Positions 28,459 through 42,700 of a stretch of 64,000 nucleotides of DNA are shown here, in pieces. Under the pieces are notes generated by a model. That model did not search any database, was not told the origin of the DNA, and worked only from the letters and a program-made list of their open reading frames with translations. Numbering within the stretch: position 1 is the stretch's first letter; every line of letters starts with the position of its first letter. Origin of the DNA: a bacterium (lineage in GTDB: Bacteria > Patescibacteriota > Dojkabacteria > SC72); contig JALHDC010000004.1 in NCBI GenBank assembly GCA_022840695.1, forward strand, positions 22,907-86,906, read 5' to 3'. Both the position numbers and the translations under genes were made by a program.

Positions 28459-30195
28459 ATGAAAAACCCTTTCCTAAAACTTTCTGAATTAAAACTTGGA
28501 AAGAGACAAATAATAATTATTAGTATTGTTATTGTAGTTTTAATAGTTATCTCTTTGTTTGTATATTTCGTATTAAGAGGAAAAAATCTCCCAACATCTA
28601 TTAATAACAATGCACAAAATACTTTTGAAAAAGGATATGCAGATGATTCTGAAGAAGCATTAACTACATTCGCTCAACCCTATGATACTGAAGATACAGA
28701 TCCAACATATGATCTTTATGGGGAAGTAGGTACTCCTCCAAATGAAGACTTTAGTCATGATAGTGTGCAAATAAGTTCTGATTTTAGCCCAGATTCCGAA
28801 GAATGTAGCATGTCTGAAGAGGGAAGTTGTATAGATTTAGGAAGAGAAAAAACGGTTATGCCTAATCACTCTACAGTCAATCTTACTGTATGGGAATCGT
28901 ATGCGATTGAATGGAGTGATGATGATCTCCCAGGTGGAAGAGTAGGTCTTAAGGCTTATGCTGTATTACCTGATGCCTCTATGGCTACGATATATGATAG
29001 TACAAAGGTCCAATTCAATTTCTATGATAAAGAGACAAGGATTGTACAGATGGAAGGAGAGGTATATTACCGTGCAAAACCACAAGAGGATGATCATGTC
29101 CTTACAGTACAAGCGGGAGACAGATTGATAGAGTTGAATGATGCTGAAGCGTATGTTCAAATTATACATGATACTGATGCGGAAACAGCTAGGTATGAAG
29201 AATGGGAGAAGTTAGAGAAGGAGCTAGGCCTTGAAGATAATGATTATTATTATGATAATGGGGAATTAGATTTGGAAAAATATGAGAAATACCAACGCTC
29301 ATCAGAAGAATATCGTAAAGAGATTGAAAATAGCAAGGGAGATATATATGCAATATATGTATATATAACATCTGGTAATGCAAAGATTACATCAAGATCA
29401 GATAGAAATACTGTTCTTTCTGAGCTGAATGGAGATAATCCATTTACAATCCTTAAATATAGAGAGCCTGAGGAGAATACTAGGGTATATTTTGATGCTG
29501 AGCAGGAGGAGATAGATGAAAAGAAGGAGAAGTTGGCGACTGGTTATGAATCAACAGAATTTATGTCCAATCTTACTTTTTCTATGTCCAATTATGGAAT
29601 TGGAAATTTTGCAGAAGTATCCACAGAAGATCTTGTTAATATGTTACAGGTAAATATTAATACAATAGAACCCCAAGCTAGGAAAACTACTGCATGGTAC
29701 AAAGATGATATGGAGAATTTCCTTAGTGATTGGAATGAATTTATAGAGAAAACTTCTTGTAAGGCTGGTTGGTATAAAGCGACAGATACGACGTGTTGTC
29801 CCGATGGATATATATGGGATTCATCTAGGCAATTATGTACAAAGACTACTTATACATATTACTGTAATGATGGATATACTCTTGGATCAGATAATATGTG
29901 CCATAAAACAGGCTCGACTAGTGAATCTGTTAAACCGACAGTAGGAAATACTCCTGCTTTTACCTCAGGAAATTGTCCTCCAGAAGGTGATATAGTCATA
30001 ACCTGGTGTTATCCAGAAGATGGCAATACAAAATCAGGATATGTATTTTGTGGGTATAAAATTGTTAATAATAAAGAGAAGTATTGTCAAGATACTGTGT
30101 TAGGGGGAGTTAAAATGGTTTGTGGAAATGTGGGAGATGGGGAAATTCCCAAAACATGTCTTCCTAACGGATTTAATAACTGGGTAAATCCATAG
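28459..30195 (+). CDS. hypothetical secreted protein with a C-terminal Cys-rich region
   Basis: N-terminal TM. Acidic middle. C-terminal C..GY..C repeats. Confidence 0.45.
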   Translation: MKNPFLKLSELKLGKRQIIIISIVIVVLIVISLFVYFVLRGKNLPTSINNNAQNTFEKGYADDSEEALTTFAQPYDTEDTDPTYDLYGEVGTPPNEDFSHDSVQISSDFSPDSEECSMSEEGSCIDLGREKTVMPNHSTVNLTVWESYAIEWSDDDLPGGRVGLKAYAVLPDASMATIYDSTKVQFNFYDKETRIVQMEGEVYYRAKPQEDDHVLTVQAGDRLIELNDAEAYVQIIHDTDAETARYEEWEKLEKELGLEDNDYYYDNGELDLEKYEKYQRSSEEYRKEIENSKGDIYAIYVYITSGNAKITSRSDRNTVLSELNGDNPFTILKYREPEENTRVYFDAEQEEIDEKKEKLATGYESTEFMSNLTFSMSNYGIGNFAEVSTEDLVNMLQVNINTIEPQARKTTAWYKDDMENFLSDWNEFIEKTSCKAGWYKATDTTCCPDGYIWDSSRQLCTKTTYTYYCNDGYTLGSDNMCHKTGSTSESVKPTVGNTPAFTSGNCPPEGDIVITWCYPEDGNTKSGYVFCGYKIVNNKEKYCQDTVLGGVKMVCGNVGDGEIPKTCLPNGFNNWVNP

Positions 30196-30229: not shown

Positions 30230-30425
30230 TACTGTGTAAGGCTTTCTCCTTCGAACCGAAGGGTAGTGAAAACTAGTCAAAATATGGGTATTCTCATCCA
30301 CCAGGATGTGAAATTGAAATACTTAAATTTAGAGAAGAAATAATGAAGCAACCAAGGGATTCCTAGTTATAGTGGACGGGTCTTGTCGCAACCTGGAAAG
30401 AATGGCGGGATGGACAGGACTCGAA
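30230..30425 (-). repeat. copy A of a ~190-bp direct repeat ending in a tRNA-Asp 3'-end-like fragment (GTTCGAGTCCTGTCCATCCCGCCA)
   Basis: Aligns with 34355..34548 (~75-80% identity), including 'CCTTCGAACCGA(A)GGG', 'TCATCCACCAGG', 'AGTGGACGGGTCTTGT' and the tRNA 3' 24-mer (2 mismatches). No intact tRNA is present here. Confidence 0.7.
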
Positions 30426-30566
30426 CGAAGCTAAGATATTAGTAAGCAGTTAAAAGATTTCTTTAATCAGAGGTTCGAGCATCTTCCTCATAATAAACAG
30501 GTCATATATGTAGAAAATCTTATATTTCTATAACATACGTAAAACCGTATTCTTTGGAAACAAAAA

Positions 30567-31574
30567 CTACCTTAACATATAAAAACTATTCTTAGTACTA
30601 CCCTGTTTTTCTAAATAACCCTTTGAAACAAGACCATCTAGAAGATTGAAAGCCTGCTGTCTAGATATATCTAGATCCTTTGCAACATCAGAAGAAGTAA
30701 TCTCTTTGTACTTCTTAATTAGATCTAATACATCCTTTTCTCTATTTGTAGGACGCATATCAAAAGAAATATTCTTTAAACCTTCTTCTATCTTAGCTAA
30801 TGCAGACTGTAGAGAATATTTAACACCATCTGTAAAATACTCCAGCCATTCTGTTTTATCTCCACTATCTGCAGAGTGTAGGGAGTCAGAATACTGTATC
30901 CTATCAATATCATAGTAATCATCAAGTACAAAATACTTATTTATCTTGTATCCTAGTTGATCTAAAAGAAGAGTAGTGCTTAATCTACAAACTCTACCAT
31001 TACCATCTACAAATGGATGAATATATACAAACTCATGATGATATATACCTGCTTTAAGTATGTCTAAATCTTCTGAGGTGTTTGTCCAATCTATTAACTC
31101 CTCAAGTAGTTTTTCTATTCCTTTCTTAGTATGTTCTGGTGGATCATGCTTTACGACCACAGTACCTTTATCAGAGGGATTTCCAACTACAACCTTTCTA
31201 TCTCTTATATCTCCTGCAATTTCATCTTCAACTCCTTCTAAGAGTTCTTTGTGGATCTTTAATATCGTATCAATATCTAAAGTGTCATATTCTTTCCCTA
31301 TCTGTTTTAGGATATTAAAGTAGTTCTTTACTTCTTTTTCATCTCTGTTTGCCGGTACCCTTCCTCCAAGTATTAAATTAGTAACTTCTTCTTGAGAGAG
31401 TGGGTTACCTTCAATGCTATTAGAAGAAAAAGATGATTTAACAAGATTGTGTTTTTCTAGATTAAGAAGTAAATTTTTAGGAACTACTTGTGATTCTAAT
31501 TGACCATAGAGTCTTTCAATTGAAGATATATTTTCTAAGAGTTTTTTACTTAGTTTGTACTTAGGATTTAACAT
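30567..31574 (-). CDS. Fic/Doc-family protein (putative AMPylator or toxin) with a C-terminal winged-helix domain
   Basis: Fic motif 'HPFVDGNGRVCRL'. Confidence 0.8.
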   Translation of the reverse strand: MLNPKYKLSKKLLENISSIERLYGQLESQVVPKNLLLNLEKHNLVKSSFSSNSIEGNPLSQEEVTNLILGGRVPANRDEKEVKNYFNILKQIGKEYDTLDIDTILKIHKELLEGVEDEIAGDIRDRKVVVGNPSDKGTVVVKHDPPEHTKKGIEKLLEELIDWTNTSEDLDILKAGIYHHEFVYIHPFVDGNGRVCRLSTTLLLDQLGYKINKYFVLDDYYDIDRIQYSDSLHSADSGDKTEWLEYFTDGVKYSLQSALAKIEEGLKNISFDMRPTNREKDVLDLIKKYKEITSSDVAKDLDISRQQAFNLLDGLVSKGYLEKQGSTKNSFYMLR

Positions 31575-31729: not shown

Positions 31730-31915
31730 CATTCTGACTTCGAATCGAGGAGATATAAATATGCGACGTTTTAGGAGTATTTCTATACACCAGGCCTAAT
31801 TTCTGAAAACTCGTTTTTTGAAGGTCGAAACAATCAAGGTTTAACAACCTTTCTAAGAGGTAGTACACGGGTCTATAAAGAACCAAAGGAATATGGCGGG
31901 ACATACGGGTCTGGA
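31730..31915 (-). repeat. copy C of the ~190-bp tRNA-Asp-associated direct repeat (more degenerate)
   Basis: 'CACCAGGCCTAATTTCTGAAAACTCGTTTTTTGAAGG' matches copy B 'CACCAGGCCTTACTTTTGGAAACTTCATTTTTTAAGG'. 'GTACACGGGTCTATA...AATATGGCGGGACATACGGGTCTGGAACC' matches the tRNA 3'-end region of copies A and B. Confidence 0.6.
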
Positions 31916-31925
31916 ACCTACTATC

Positions 31926-32537
31926 CTATACTTGAATAATTTTTATAGAATCATCTTTTATCCAAACATACTGTTGATTAGTAAGTGGAAGTATTTTAAC
32001 TCCTTCTGTATACATAGTATCTATTCCACTTAAATATTCATCATGGAATATATCACTTCCCCAATGGGGTAAAATAGATAAATCTACAATCTCTAATCCT
32101 GTTTTAGCTGCTATATTCAGACTTTGTAGGAATGTAGGCATTAATTTCCCAGTGACAAATGTTTCGGATTTGTCAGTAGTTCCTATAAAAGGTATTGGCT
32201 CTCCATCATAAAGTTTATCTAAATCTGGTATTTGAGAAATAATATTCCTCATTACGATTCGATTCCCTTCAACTGTATTTCTAAAAGCAATTGCTCCAAG
32301 CTTACCTCTTAATCCCCATCTTGCAGATGTCCCACATAACATATTTAAGTAGGAAGCTATGGTGTATTGATTCTCCCGATGACTAGACTTACTTTGTATA
32401 AATGAGATGTGTGGTCCATAAAATGTTTCCAAATTTGCCCTTGTGCTTATTGCTAATTGTAATGTTGAAGCTGCACTAAAAGTTGTAAAAATAGGCTTAA
32501 GTGTTTTTAATGCTTCGAAGTCTAGTTCTTCAATCAA
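31926..32537 (-). CDS. hypothetical protein, probably an N-terminally truncated gene remnant (weak metallophosphoesterase-like motifs). Uses a TTG start; the frame is open upstream to 32774 without an ATG.
   Basis: Manual upstream translation '...AIFPVAGNSHSEH-LIEELD...' with no ATG. Weak GNH-like motif. Confidence 0.35.
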   Translation of the reverse strand: MIEELDFEALKTLKPIFTTFSAASTLQLAISTRANLETFYGPHISFIQSKSSHRENQYTIASYLNMLCGTSARWGLRGKLGAIAFRNTVEGNRIVMRNIISQIPDLDKLYDGEPIPFIGTTDKSETFVTGKLMPTFLQSLNIAAKTGLEIVDLSILPHWGSDIFHDEYLSGIDTMYTEGVKILPLTNQQYVWIKDDSIKIIQV

Positions 32538-32784
32538 ATGTTCTGAATGACTATTCCCAGCTACGGGGAATATTGCTTTTGAACCTGAATTAACAGCTTG
32601 ATTAAATTTTGCAATTCTTTCAGCATCGTTACCCTGTAAGGCTGTATGATCCTTAACTTCGAAACCGAGAGAGTTAAGATATTCTTCTATTTCAGAGTTT
32701 CTATGAAAACGTTCGTCTTGTTGGGATGAGGGATTTACTAGCGATACAGTTGAATCTTTAGATAGCTATTCTGGTTTATTAAAC

Positions 32785-33396
32785 TCAATTTCCATTCTTA
32801 AATAAAATTCTGTCAAAAATAAGATTATTATCAAAACATGCAATTTCTAAATCTTTTAATTTCAAATAGTCTTCGTTAAAAACTTTTTCAGAGGGTTTGT
32901 AGTGAGGTATTAAAATTATATTTTCTAATATCCCGAAACCATGTCTGACTGTATAATCTTCTTTTGAAAGGTCTAAATATCCTTCGCATAGCAGTGCTGC
33001 TCCTGCGCTTAATCCTACCAATATCCCATCAAAGGTCTTTAAGAGAGAAATAAAATGCTTGTAGATTCTCTTCTCTTTTAATATTGTAATGAAAACTTCA
33101 GGATCTCCTGATCCAAGATATACGATACTTGAATTTGTAAATAAGTCAGTCAGTATCTTTTTGCTATATCTTTTTTTATGTAATCTAACGATATTTATTG
33201 AACATCCTAAATTCGCATATTCTGTTTCAAAGGCATTTATATAGTCGTTTCTATCACCAGAAGATGTTGGGAAGAATAAAACATTTAAGGGCAGATGATT
33301 CTCTTGCGCTATAAATATTACTTTTTTGTCGATTTCTTTGGTCTCTCCTGACCATATTCTACCGCCTCCAATAAGTATTCTAATTTTTCTTTTCAT
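32785..33396 (-). CDS. peptidase S51 (peptidase E / cyanophycinase-like) family protein
   Basis: 'VYLGSGDPEVF...LVGLSAGAALLCE' nucleophile-elbow region. Confidence 0.65.
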   Translation of the reverse strand: MKRKIRILIGGGRIWSGETKEIDKKVIFIAQENHLPLNVLFFPTSSGDRNDYINAFETEYANLGCSINIVRLHKKRYSKKILTDLFTNSSIVYLGSGDPEVFITILKEKRIYKHFISLLKTFDGILVGLSAGAALLCEGYLDLSKEDYTVRHGFGILENIILIPHYKPSEKVFNEDYLKLKDLEIACFDNNLIFDRILFKNGN

Positions 33397-34184
33397 CTAT
33401 ATCGAATAAAATATTATTTATTAGCTGGGATTGTTCGAATGTAATACCATATCTATTCCCAGCGGTTTCCATTAAGAGTTTCAATTTAGTTATTTCCATG
33501 TCATTAAGTGAAGAGATTATATTTTTTGTATTTACTTTATATTTAAGCATTTGTGTTAGTACTATTTGTCTTACTTCAATAGGGTATTCTCCGTTTAGAA
33601 TGTTGCTAAATTTTACTTTATCTAATTCGATTGCTAGGAGATTTCTTATTTCTCTGAGAATTTTTAAATATAGAGGGTAGACAAATTGATTTTCTTTTGT
33701 TTTCTTATACTTCAATACGAGTGTACAGATAAGTCTATTTATTTTGGTGTTATCGATAATACTTGTTCCGAAACTTGCTTTTGTATCTTCAGTACCAATA
33801 AAGCTTTGCTCATTCATAATACTTTCGATATCTTTATTAATTACAGAAAACAACTTCTTAATAATGTCTTTATCTTTGGATACTCCAATTATTAACTTCT
33901 TCTCCGCAAGGCATAAAGGAAAGGGCAATTATTTGCTTATTATTTTTTTCATACCAATCATCTAGATAGTTTCTTATAACTTGGTTATAAAGATCAACAA
34001 GATTTTCAGCATTTGCACGTCCATTTTTTGCTACAAAGACGCCAAGATTATCAAGATCTCCAGTTATTGCCCATAAATGAGAGTTGTTTTTATACTCAGA
34101 ATATCTTTGAAAAACAGAGACTATATGTGGATTGTAATAATATCTCCAATCAGTTTCGGAGATTCTATCTTTATTTCTAATCAA
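33380..34184 (-). pseudogene. degenerate GGDEF-like (nucleotide cyclase palm) gene split by a frameshift into a 104-aa N-terminal ORF (34184..33870) and a 182-aa C-terminal ORF (33928..33380). 'CGEE' replaces GGDEF.
   Basis: N-part 'ITGDLDNLGVFVAKNGRANAENLV...ALSFMPCGEE' parallels 'IYFDMDNLKTINDTYGHKMGDKAIL...ARLGGDEF' of the bona fide GGDEF at 34653. After a 1-nt shift in GAGAAGAAG the C-part continues 'KLIIGVSKDKD', matching 'FIIVVEEITGS'. Confidence 0.5.
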
Positions 34185-34354
34185 TGATTTTGTAATAAAA
34201 TATATTATTACAAAGCTATCTTATCATAGTCTAGTCTAAATAGAAAGTTATGGAAGGGTGTGTTGCTTTATGATATTCATAGGAAATTTCTGATGTAAAA
34301 TTACTTCTATGAGCAAATAAAGATTTGTTTTTTGACATGCCTTTTTGTTTTGTA

Positions 34355-34524
34355 AAATAAGGCTTCTACCTTCGAACCGAGGGCTCTAAAAAATGCATGT
34401 TTTTTGACTCTTTTCATCCACCAGGCCTTACTTTTGGAAACTTCATTTTTTAAGGCCCAAATAACTCAATCTCCATAAGGGTTTTAAAAGATAGTGGACG
34501 GGTCTTGTTGGAACATGTTGAAAA
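34355..34524 (-). repeat. copy B of the ~190-bp direct repeat (downstream flank of the intact tRNA-Asp)
   Basis: See copies A and C. Confidence 0.65.
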
Positions 34525-34601
34525 TGGCGGAATGGACGGGACTCGAACCCGCAACCTTCTCAGTGACAGTGAGATGCTCTAACCAATTGAGCTACCACTC
34601 C
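34525..34601 (-). tRNA. tRNA-Asp (anticodon GTC), CCA encoded
   Basis: Manual cloverleaf: GGAGTGG/CCATTCC acceptor, anticodon loop CTGTCAC, T-arm GCGGG-TTCGAGT-CCCGT. 74 nt plus CCA. Confidence 0.85.
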
Positions 34602-39753: not shown

Positions 39754-42700
39754 ATGAAAAATATTCAAAAGCATTTTAACGGGAGGAAACTGATTGTAAT
39801 CATGTGTATTTTTACTGTACTTACATTTCTTCCGATAGTAATATACCTATATCTTTCTAAAACCATACAGAGTGTAGCATATACTACATTAGACAATTTT
39901 AATAACACAGTTTATTTAGATATTGCTAATTCCACTAATTATTCCATTTCAAATGGATCTGTAAAAGTAGAACAAATCGCATATGGATATGGTACAGGAG
40001 CTGATGGCGCATGTACTGTGTCAGCAAATAAGGAAATAAATACGGGTAGTTGTGTTGGTAGAGCAAATGGAGATGCTGTAAATTTTAGGGTTACGGCCAA
40101 TGTTGCAGCTGGGAGTAATTCTGTTACATTAAGTTCTGCTCCTACAGGGTTAGCCATTGGAGACGAGATATTAATAATTAATCTACAAGGAACAGCAGCA
40201 GATTATGGAAATGTAGGGAAATATGATACGGCATATATTACTGGGATTAATGGTAATACTCTGGCCTTAGATAGTAATCTTGTTAATGGATATGATGGAA
40301 CAACACAGAAAATTATGGTTCAGAGGATACCACAATATACTGATGTAACTATAAATGCAGGTGTTAACTGGTATCCTTCTGCTTGGGATGGAACAAAGGG
40401 AGGAGTAATGATGTTTAAAGCAAATGGTACAGTTACAGTCAACGGTACTATTACGGTAGCAGGCAGAGGATATAGAGGAGGAGCAGCAGATATAGCAGGA
40501 GGTGCTGGTGAGACATTTGGTGGATATAATAGTGGAACAGGTGGAGATTATAATTTATATGGAGGTGTAAGTGATAGAGGAGAAGCTGGAAATATGGGGG
40601 GTGGAGGAGGCGGTGGCGGAAATTATCAGCATGCAAGTGGTGGGAATTCTGTTGGTGGTGCAGGTTCAGCAACAGGTGGTGCAGGAGGAGGAGGTGGTGG
40701 TGGATCAGGACTTGATTTTAGAAGATCTAGAGGAGGAGGTGGTGGAGGTGGAGGATATGGTACTGCTGCAACCGCAGGGGGTGGTTATCAAGCAGGTACT
40801 TCTGGAGGTACTAATGTGAGTGGTAATGGTGGAAGTGGAAGAGGAAGTAGTAATACAGGAACAGGAGGAGGTGGTGGTGGAGGTGGGACATATGGTGTTG
40901 CTGATTTAAGCAAAGTATATTTTGGTTCAGGAGGAGGTGGAGCAGGTACAGGAGGTCCTAGGAGAGGAGGAGCTGGAGGAATTGGGGGTGGTATTGTTAT
41001 AATATCAGCAAATTCGTTAACTGTAGAACCAACAGCTGGAGTAATTACAGCTGGAGGTTATGCCGGCAGTAATGCTGCATATTATGGACAATGGGCTTGT
41101 GCTGCTGAAGGATCTGGAGGAGGAGGTGGTGGTGCAGCTGGTGGATCTATTAAACTAATTACAAACTCAACCACTGCTGGAACTAATAGAATAAATAGTG
41201 ATGGTGGGAATGGTGGATTAGGAATATGTCATAATGGTGGTAATGGAGGTTCAGGAAGGGTAAGGATTCAATATGTATCATCTTTATCAGGAACAACTAG
41301 ACCTGCTGCAAGTACATTACAAGCTCCTTTATATAAAGATAGTATGATTTTACAATCGCTTGATTTAGTTCATATTGATAGTAATGCTGCAGTTCTTTCT
41401 TTTGCATATTCACTCTCTTCTAGCCCAGCAGGGACATCTAGTTCTGTTCAGTTTAGTACTGATGCGCTTACATGGTACAATTCTTCTGGGAATTTGGGAG
41501 GATCAGATTCTCTTTCTGTTGGTGTAGACAATATAATAGATCTTACAGCATTAGAATGGTTAACTCCTACCTTCTTCTACAAGATTACAACTAATACTAA
41601 TGGAGCAAGTACACCTGTTTTAGATAGCGTCTCTTTGAACTATGATATAACACCATCTGTACCAACGATCGGTGAACCAGAGGCCTTATCTACAGATACA
41701 ATAAGATGGAATTTCACAGATAACGCAACTAATGAAGAAGGTTTTATCTTAGTCGATGAGGAAGGAACCCTTATAAAATACTGCCTAGGAGAAAATCTTA
41801 CATACTGTGATGAAACAGGTTTGCAAGAGAACACTCAATACACAAGAGGAGTTAAAGCATATAATGCTCTCGGAGAGAGTGTATCTTCTGAAACAGCAAC
41901 GGTTTATACCCTCGTTTCAGTTCCTTCCATATTTCCTGGAGGTAGTAAAACAGCTTCCTCATTAACACTTTCTGCTTTAGGTCAAGTCAATAATTCTGAA
42001 ATATATTTTGACTGTGAAAATACAGGCTGTGATACTGGTATAAATGAATGGATATCAACAAGTACGGATGAAGTTACTAATCTTGATTTTAATACTCCAT
42101 ACACATTTAAAGTAAAAGGAAGGAATGGAGATAGTATCGAAACTCCATATTCTGAAAGTATCACGGTATATACATTAGCAGAAGTCCCTTCCATTTCCTT
42201 AACACCACTTTCATCTACATCCGTTACTCTAACAGCGGAAGGTATCAATAATGTTAATGAAGGTAACTCTGGTGTATTCTTTGAATGCGAAGAAGAGGAT
42301 TGTAGTGAAGGAATAACGGAATGGGTACAATCAGAAAGTACAACTGTAACAAACTTAGATCCCAATAGACTATATTTCTTTAGAGTAAAAGCTAGGAATT
42401 TTGATGGAGTAGAAAGTACATTCAGTGAATATATGGGAACATACACAAAGTCCAGTATTCCTAATATTCCAACAGTAGTTTCTCAGACAACAAATAGCAT
42501 AACTATCGCTCTCTCATCTGATAATAATCCAGAAGGTACACAGTATGCCATTATGGAAGAGAAAAGTGGAAAATATGTTGATATATCAACAGGTAGTTTG
42601 GTGGATGATCTAGTATGGGGGACATATACTCAATTCGGATCTGCGAATGGTAAAGAGGTAGTAGGTTTAGAAGTAGGTACAGAATATATATTTAAAGCAA

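Follow-up and report, generated by a model that had tools for sequence, protein, structure and literature searches.

An apparently freshly inactivated Dojkabacteria gene points to an undescribed family of stand-alone GGDEF/Cas10/Thg1-clade palm proteins encoded beside serine peptidases

The 64,000-nucleotide stretch of DNA analysed here (contig JALHDC010000004.1 of assembly GCA_022840695.1, positions 22,907 to 86,906 of the forward strand; Patescibacteriota, Dojkabacteria, SC72), referred to below as the window, carries at 33380..34184 on its minus strand two overlapping open reading frames (ORFs) that a first-pass annotation, made from the sequence alone, had taken for a frameshifted and degenerate GGDEF-like gene. 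We read this feature, with a probability of roughly three in four, as a freshly inactivated gene for a stand-alone nucleotidyltransferase or cyclase that belongs to an undescribed family within the GGDEF/Cas10/Thg1 clade of palm-domain proteins. The gene, called the palm gene in the following, runs from a TTG start (34182-34184) to a stop codon at 33380-33382; it has full-length homologues, and strains that are 99% identical carry intact alleles encoding a protein of 268 residues. The copy in the window is itself a dead gene and of little importance. Its intact relatives head a conserved, unannotated module of two to four genes, the lead enzyme of which would represent a new branch of the palm clade.

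Both ORFs exist exactly as first described (33870..34184, 104 residues; 33380..33928, 182 residues; both on the minus strand), and the proposal that they form one frameshifted gene was borne out. ORF 1 encodes palm residues 1-96 and continues for a few codons across and beyond a deletion before it ends at TAA. In ORF 2 the upstream part, as far as the TTG at 33928, is a non-homologous frame, and the in-frame remainder (33380..33893, minus strand; residues ~98-268) encodes palm strand 3, helix 3 and strand 4 together with a conserved C-terminal helical domain. A three-frame translation has frame 1 ending in ...SFMPCGEEVNNWSIQR*, with the next frame running on as ...KLIIGVSKDKD.... The joined sequence retrieved 18 proteins, most of them full-length (262-276 residues) and spanning both halves; one of these, P0001, is 91% identical to the joined protein over 100% of the query, and the junction in the homologue alignment reads PCGEE-V-LIVGV. 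Because full-length homologues cover both halves and the junction aligns, the two ORFs are, on this comparison, a single gene and not separate genes.

The lesion could be placed by alignment with contigs L001, L004, L032, L035, L036, L037 and L039. Contig L001 is 90.7% identical to the window over 34425..32087, and the sole indel within the gene is a gap of two nucleotides, GAAGAAGTTTTAATA in L001 against GAAGAAG--TTAATA in the window, at 33894..33895 on the minus strand. Only TT is left here of an ancestral TTTT run, and the 2-nucleotide deletion changes GAA GAA GTT TTA to GAAGAAGTTA and shifts the frame. GTTTTA is thereby turned into GTTA directly 3' of the GEE codons and of GAGAAGAAG, the string within which a 1-nucleotide frameshift had been postulated; the position was close, the kind of lesion was wrong. 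The repaired protein has 268 residues, not the 285 first proposed, with CGEE-V-LIIGV as its true junction and ~120 residues of conserved helical domain after the palm core.

Near-isogenic contigs, retrieved with the window's peptidase S51 protein and the 104-residue ORF as queries, include four (L035, L036, L037 and L039) that are 99.1-99.9% identical to the window at the DNA level and carry the intact 268-residue gene. Apart from the missing TT, a single synonymous base separates their copies of the gene from that of the window, with one further substitution in L039. The exact-sequence cluster holds at least 10 intact 268-residue variants (at least 90% identity) on more than 60 contigs, as against few fragments. 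The intact orthologues, against which the reading frame of the window is broken, are under purifying selection: the ratio of nonsynonymous to synonymous substitution rates (dN/dS) is 0.14 for the intact alleles of L035 and L001. Judged from assembled sequence, the copy in the window was inactivated very recently and is a fresh pseudogene of a gene that is functional where intact and has been lost repeatedly. Haplotypes with the full module, with a deleted S66 gene, and with a deleted S66 gene plus the frameshift coexist at 99% identity or more, and such population data show how fast accessory modules decay.

An exhaustive profile search of 1.84 billion representatives recovered only 89 cluster proteins, nearly all of them stand-alone and 250-280 residues long, and by this measure the family is small, closed and unannotated. 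One further candidate, the 1360-residue TPR protein P0104 (E 2.5e-4), was set aside as a repeat-composition artefact. Across 64 members with 23-50% identity, D43, L47, R56, V63, G94, E95, E96, R181, D189, K192, F193, R206 and K217 are invariant, and D45 is conserved in at least 90%. The Asp43-Leu44-Asp45 codons (34050..34058, minus strand; GDLDNLG) lie at the end of strand 1, align with the DxD of GGDEF domains and encode the predicted metal-binding acid or acids. The Glu95-Glu96 codons (33897..33902, minus strand; CGEE) lie in the hairpin between strands 2 and 3, align with the GDE of GGDEF and encode the predicted catalytic acidic dyad. The family motif is P-[S/C]-G-E-E-[V/I/A], and the first Gly and the Phe of GG[DE][DE]F are absent from all members. 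Because D43, G94, E95 and E96 are invariant across the 64 members and dN/dS is as low as 0.14, CGEE is to be seen as the family's own conserved, predicted catalytic motif and not as a decayed GGDEF.

An AlphaFold2 model of P0001 (mean predicted local distance difference test score, pLDDT, 84.9; predicted template modelling score, pTM, 0.78) shows a strand at 36-45, helices at 47-80, strands at 85-93 and 96-103, a helix at 106-125, a strand at 136-144, and helices from there to the C-terminus. Its core is thus arranged as strand-helix-helix-strand-strand-helix-strand, that is, a palm core of four strands and two helices. When this model was compared with the PDB using Foldseek, the top 20 hits were all GGDEF domains, DosC, WspR, TM1788 and GcbC among them, with a probability of 1.0, template modelling (TM) scores on the target of 0.5-0.56 and E ~3e-3; Csm1/Cas10, Thg1 and class III cyclases ranked next. 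A search against viral structures gave weak GGDEF-like matches only and no viral relatives. Alignment by hhalign of the 64-member family profile with a GGDEF profile built from the window's own cyclase and 63 homologues gave a probability of 73.5% and P = 3e-5 over 94 columns, compared with P = 0.15-0.34 for four controls (both profiles reversed, S51 and S66). The paired motifs are TGDLDNLG/FDMDNLK, GRAxAEN/GHxxGD, PSGEEV/GGDEFI and ISFG/SiGv. Searched against PDB sequences, the same 64-member profile returned three matches, all of them diguanylate cyclases (E 0.02-0.85), while an earlier profile of 18 sequences had returned no meaningful match. Scanned one by one against Pfam, the 64 members matched just two families more than once, below threshold, and both point to the same clade: Cas10-Cmr2_palm2 in 5 members (best E 4.6e-4) and GGDEF in 3 (best E 0.013). 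The GGDEF/Cas10/Thg1 palm group is defined by an acid ending strand 1, a small residue followed by two acids in the hairpin, and no insert after strand 1 (Anantharaman et al., PMC2904730), and the positions of the family's acids fit this definition. Model, Foldseek hits, hhalign register and residue invariance agree on a palm fold with a strand-1 acid and a hairpin acidic dyad, and place the protein, as far as sequence and model can tell, in an undescribed family within the clade.

These results bear on most of what had been claimed for the protein. Its motif pairing with the bona fide cyclase nearby is the one that hhalign finds (GDLDNLG/FDMDNLK, CGEEV/GGDEF), the absence of a sensor domain holds, and the predicted structure does contain a palm core. 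The label GGDEF-like is apt for the fold and the profile-profile comparison of the N-terminal half; the Pfam GGDEF model does not recognise the protein. The description of the site as degenerate gives way to a conserved motif of a separate family, and that of a decaying cyclase fits the window copy and a few other lineages, the family itself being no decayed canonical GGDEF.

The palm gene keeps constant company: in ultra-small bacteria of the candidate phyla radiation, two genes for serine peptidases lie beside it almost without exception. We surveyed its context in 20 loci from GTDB species representatives and in 41 metagenome loci. Of the 20 genome loci, 16 have a gene for a peptidase of family S66 directly beside the palm gene, as do nearly all metagenome loci in which the flanking sequence is long enough; a gene for a peptidase of family S51 adjoins it in most loci, and a class I methyltransferase is present in one subgroup. 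What lies outside the module changes from genome to genome. Within it, genes start before the stop of the gene ahead of them (with an overlap of 17 nucleotides in the window that is kept in L001), and the order is palm, S51, S66, S66 and a DarT-like gene in L001, and methyltransferase, palm, S51, S66 and methyltransferase in Daviesbacteria. Natural palm-S51 fusions are found in P0023 (488 residues), in P0040 (425 residues) and at L047 6001-7470. The module S66 proteins match both Pfam S66 domains and have MccF (E 5e-9) rather than LdcA (3e-5) as their nearest solved relatives, and the nearest relative of the module S51 is a cyanophycinase-like exopeptidase. An MccF-like and a cyanophycinase-like peptidase are the fixed partners of the module, an undescribed set: neither a palm-S51-S66 module nor the family turned up in the literature that we searched.

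CARF is a nucleotide-sensing domain, and a single lineage of Zixibacteria (L018, L049) has a CARF-sigma54 regulator as partner and lacks the peptidases; no other type of locus has a nucleotide sensor as partner. The pair lies at L018 5319-8058 in the metagenome-assembled genome contig JAOZPT010000072, where the regulator follows 23 nucleotides after the palm gene. This partner is an RtcR-like protein of 634 residues that combines a Cas_NE0113 CARF domain (113 bits against a cut-off of 80.65; TIGR02584) with a sigma54 AAA+ domain. Genes for Xre, DUF5659 and DUF5906 proteins upstream give the L018/L049 locus a mobile-element-like context.

Some further variations on the module were seen. At L026 2103-2714, L064, L075 7003-7614 and L076 the S51 slot beside S66 is held by a 203-residue alpha/beta Ser_hydrolase (PF06821), which suggests a non-homologous replacement of one serine hydrolase by another. 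The DarT-like gene, of an ADP-ribosyltransferase toxin family, closes the module in the closest relatives (L001 3750-4391; L012 13489-14154; 27 bits against a cut-off of 22.5), and no DarG-like macrodomain gene was seen. The second S66 paralogue of L001 (2704-3735) has, by eye, the nucleophile motif GYGSLS instead of the expected G-x-S-D-x-T, and may be inactive.

Several observations weigh against our reading of the protein as a nucleotidyltransferase or cyclase of this clade and against a link between its product and the peptidases. Pfam (including GGDEF and mCpol), NCBIfam and PADLOC, the last in a library of 2023 that predates Panoptes, gave nothing above threshold for the repaired protein or either ORF, and even with E values as high as 10 allowed none of the three matched Pfam GGDEF (PF00990), a model against which the genuine cyclase of the window reaches 122 bits. 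The sole match in these scans, a sub-threshold one to PHP, was taken as chance. With a Foldseek E of ~3e-3, a high root-mean-square deviation and an hhalign probability of 73%, the clade placement draws on weak signals that agree with one another. The model has four strands only, and the C-terminal domain modelled alone (pLDDT 65, pTM 0.41) is too poor for searching. The base-reading residue, Asn or Ser in GGDEF, Cas10 and mCpol (N335 in PleD), is a conserved Val in this family, and the substrate cannot be predicted. As to the partners, the CARF association is confined to one lineage, and S51 and S66 hydrolyse amides and are not known to have a nucleotide-sensor domain, which leaves their tie to a nucleotide product a conjecture.

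Part of this evidence would also suit a non-catalytic palm protein, a nucleotide receptor or a regulator of the peptidases in the manner of degenerate GGDEF receptors, and we consider this improbable while ranking it first among the alternatives. It would account for the missing GGDEF match, the replaced first Gly of the motif and the change of the base-reading Asn to Val, as well as for a gene so tightly coupled to, and at times fused with, that of an enzyme. Receptors, however, usually lose the acidic positions needed for two-metal catalysis, all three of which are invariant here at 23-50% identity; the RxxD I-site is absent, and the suggestion of a c-di-GMP receptor-like protein fails on the same two grounds. 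Moreover, cyclase activity is known from stand-alone mCpol enzymes that retain even less of the motif (PMC12657218).

It is quite unlikely, in our estimate, that the frameshift is an assembly or sequencing error in a gene that is intact in the organism. The lesion does lie in a short homopolymer (T4 to T2), and intact alleles do dominate the population. Yet the identical deletion is present in a separate Logan assembly, L034, which is 99.96% identical to the window (2 mismatches in 4768 nucleotides), differs from it at these two other positions and may not be an independent sample. A 2-nucleotide error in a run of four would be unusual for short-read data, and the neighbouring S66 gene of the same strain has independent lesions of its own, a stop codon and a deletion. 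Relatives, too, carry other, independent lesions, namely a CAA to TAA nonsense change at the invariant Gln68 in L032 (93% amino-acid identity) and a frameshift near residues 72-76 in L033 (53% identity). Among the genome and metagenome loci, L028, L030, L031 and L050 likewise have the gene split or as a remnant. Loss affects about one lineage in ten, a rate typical of accessory genes, and it is to the window copy and these few other lineages that the word decaying applies.

A Thg1-like 3'-5' polymerase or RNA-end repair enzyme, in place of a signal synthase, is a still weaker candidate. Size and architecture are similar (a palm followed by a C-terminal helical domain, ~270 residues), yeast Thg1 does appear among the Foldseek hits (rank 33, probability 0.91, 230 columns), and the CARF-sigma54 partner is RtcR-like. 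The TM scores to Thg1 of 0.29-0.33, however, lie below those to GGDEF domains, none of the 64 members has a Pfam match to Thg1 or Thg1C, and the peptidase partners have no link to RNA repair. Finally, a functional split, by programmed +1 ribosomal frameshifting or by two polypeptides that reassemble, perhaps as an on/off switch, is hardly credible. In its favour, the catalytic hairpin is exactly where the shift occurs, ORF 2 has an upstream TTG, and in several lineages the gene is interrupted in its N-terminal third. Against it, strains that are 99.9% identical carry the plain uninterrupted gene, the lesions of other lineages differ in kind and site, the frame-1 product ends a few codons past the deletion, and the sequence has neither a known shift-prone motif nor a long repeat tract, T4 being too short for phase variation.

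The module as a whole is in decay in the window. The S51 gene (32785..33396, minus strand; 203 residues) is intact and its start overlaps the end of the palm gene by 17 nucleotides; its L001 orthologue scores 57.9 bits against PF03575. The MccF-like S66 gene is a remnant (31926..32816, minus strand), with an in-frame stop at 32766-32768 in place of a Gln codon of L001 and with homology to intact S66 that ends at 32087. Beyond that point the window has lost the C-terminal catalytic part of S66, the second S66 and the DarT-like gene, all of which are still there in L037, a contig 99.6% identical to the window up to 32087. L035 and L036 have the same S66 truncation and an intact palm gene; because they share the one and yet keep the other, the loss of S66 preceded the TT deletion. 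Of palm, S51 and S66, S51 alone is intact, and the module of the window is dead or dying.

Upstream of the palm gene, five nucleotides before the TTG start, lies an AT-rich quasi-palindrome of 26 nucleotides (34189..34214; TTTGTAATAA..TTATTACAAA), inside a leader of ~250 nucleotides that is ~90% conserved with L001. Its asymmetric centre is inverted in L004 and L006 (222-248) relative to L001 and the window, and the element could be an operator or the trace of a template-switch inversion. A microcin-like precursor peptide from a 35-codon ORF in the leader was considered and rejected, as the ORF is not conserved in L001.

The module sits in an array of cassettes anchored at a tRNA-Asp gene (GTC; 34525..34601, minus strand). 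The 3' end of this gene, with ~150-190 nucleotides of downstream sequence, occurs in three copies, all on the minus strand, that bound the palm cassette and a second cassette with a gene for a Fic and winged helix-turn-helix (wHTH) protein. Copy A (34358..34548) comprises the tRNA-Asp 3' end and ~170 nucleotides downstream; copy B (31768..31917), a degenerate tRNA-Asp 3' fragment with downstream sequence, lies between the S66 remnant and the Fic gene; and copy C (30237..30426), again a 3' fragment with downstream sequence, lies beyond the Fic gene. That gene (30567-31574, minus strand), in its own cassette between copies B and C, fuses a Fic domain (HPFxDGNGR) to a C-terminal MarR/TrmB-type winged helix. 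After the tRNA gene the order is palm module, Fic-wHTH gene and a Cys-rich ORF of 578 residues (28459..30195) for which Pfam gave no match. L035 and L039 part from the window exactly at 34530, inside the repeat, where a copy-B-type fragment lies beside unrelated genes. The locus thus has both the direct repeats of the 3' end and the strain-variable junction at the repeat that mark a tRNA island. The ORFs that we scanned between 19 and 36 kb include neither an integrase nor any other mobility gene, and an Rfam scan over 29.5-35.5 kb gave the tRNA alone. The evidence supports an array of cassettes at a tRNA gene, in which no genes for mobility are now visible, and the earlier description as mobile cargo holds in the sense of a tRNA-bounded, variable cassette. 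Elsewhere in the window, positions 40001-41000 have a GC content of 0.445, against ~0.32 in the rest, and a GC skew of 0.53.

How an intact palm protein would work can be proposed from its relatives, for which a two-metal mechanism is established (PMC2904730). By analogy, Asp43, with Asp45, and Glu95-Glu96 would hold two Mg2+ ions, which would activate a hydroxyl for attack on the alpha-phosphate of a nucleoside triphosphate, and basic residues that are invariant in the C-terminal helical domain (R181, K192, R206, K217) would help to bind the substrate. The product would be a small nucleotide, either a cyclic or linear oligonucleotide or a nucleoside monophosphate conjugate; that the family makes such a product is, in our judgement, an even bet. 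Cas10 enzymes can use other nucleophiles, SAM-AMP being an example of the outcome. Cyclic and linear oligonucleotides are products of GGDEF, Cas10 and mCpol enzymes (PMC12657218), and AMP-O-Tris is reported as a further case for Cas10 (PMC13398931).

The palm gene would be the first cistron of a self-contained operon of palm, S51 and MccF-like S66, with an S-adenosylmethionine (SAM)-dependent methyltransferase, or a second S66 and the DarT-like gene, at its optional end. Among the roles open to the peptidases, the most likely would be either to work on the palm product or to be under its control, which is suggested because S66 is MccF-like, S51 occurs fused to the palm and a CARF protein replaces the peptidases in one lineage; we offer it tentatively. 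It is conceivable, with the same reserve, that the intact family is the synthase of an unrecognised peptidase-coupled nucleotide system, mostly of Patescibacteria (the candidate phyla radiation, CPR), that makes a signal or an amino-acid- or peptide-nucleotide conjugate; S66 and S51 might then be its dedicated effectors, or enzymes that process or erase the product, and the CARF-sigma54 protein might read the product in one lineage.

Among known systems, GGDEF domains (PF00990; PleD, WspR, DosC) are the family's best structural and best profile matches. The two have the topology of the palm core in common, together with the strand-1 acid and, in the hairpin, a small residue with two acids; a G-[HR]-x-x-[GA]-[DE] motif in a helix and an S-x-G motif in strand 4 recur in both as well. 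They differ in that the family stays below the Pfam threshold, with 3 of 64 members matching at E 0.013 or worse, and has P-[S/C]-G-E-E-[VIA] in place of GG[DE]EF. PleD N335 and D344, the guanine-specifying residues, correspond in the hhalign register to the conserved V51 and to E60, and PleD Lys332 corresponds to Gly. No RxxD I-site precedes PSGEE and the catalytic acids are invariant, unlike in degenerate GGDEF c-di-GMP receptors, which have an RxxD site five residues ahead of the motif and can dispense with the acids. After strand 4 the family has its conserved helical domain of ~120 residues with several invariant basic residues, and its members occur never with sensor domains and instead with peptidase partners.

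Both MccF and LdcA, of peptidase family S66, attack amide bonds in substrates linked to a nucleotide, MccF in aminoacyl-adenylate analogues and LdcA in UDP-MurNAc-tetrapeptide, and MccF proteins are the nearest solved relatives of the module S66. The module proteins, however, score far below the NCBIfam equivalog cut-offs, and neither microcin C biosynthesis genes (MccA, B, C, D, E) nor an exporter was found in any surveyed locus. If the palm product were an amino-acid- or peptide-nucleotide conjugate, it would link palm enzymes to chemistry of the microcin C type.

Like mCpol/OptS of the Panoptes system, the family consists of small stand-alone palm enzymes without sensor domains, encoded in compact operons at variable or mobile loci, and the Cas10 palm is also its commonest sub-threshold Pfam match (Cas10-Cmr2_palm2). 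Of the three options first put forward, that of a minimal palm protein like those of defence islands comes nearest, with the reservation that neither the window protein nor the 64 members match the Pfam mCpol model, PADLOC does not match the window protein, and the S66 and S51 partners are unlike any described set. At about twice the size of mCpol/OptS, owing to the extra helical domain, family members keep the full G-E-E, a motif that OptS has nearly lost (PMC12657218). The serine peptidases S66 and S51 stand in contrast to the 2TM, CARF-TM, SAVED and HEPN effectors of mCpol: where an mCpol operon would have an S-2TM-beta, CARF-2TM, SAVED-2TM or HEPN effector, the partners in ~60 loci are S66, S51 and methyltransferase. 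CARF proteins are among the described partners of mCpol (PMC12657218), and one lineage of the family is likewise paired with a CARF-domain protein, in this case a sigma54 activator as against the membrane effector of mCpol. Stand-alone Cas10-like enzymes in immune signalling were shown only recently, with Panoptes; a peptidase-coupled version would extend the theme to very small genomes and to a new effector chemistry and, if our proposal is true, would join type III CRISPR and Panoptes as a third stand-alone branch of Cas10-like signalling, one whose partners form a new class.

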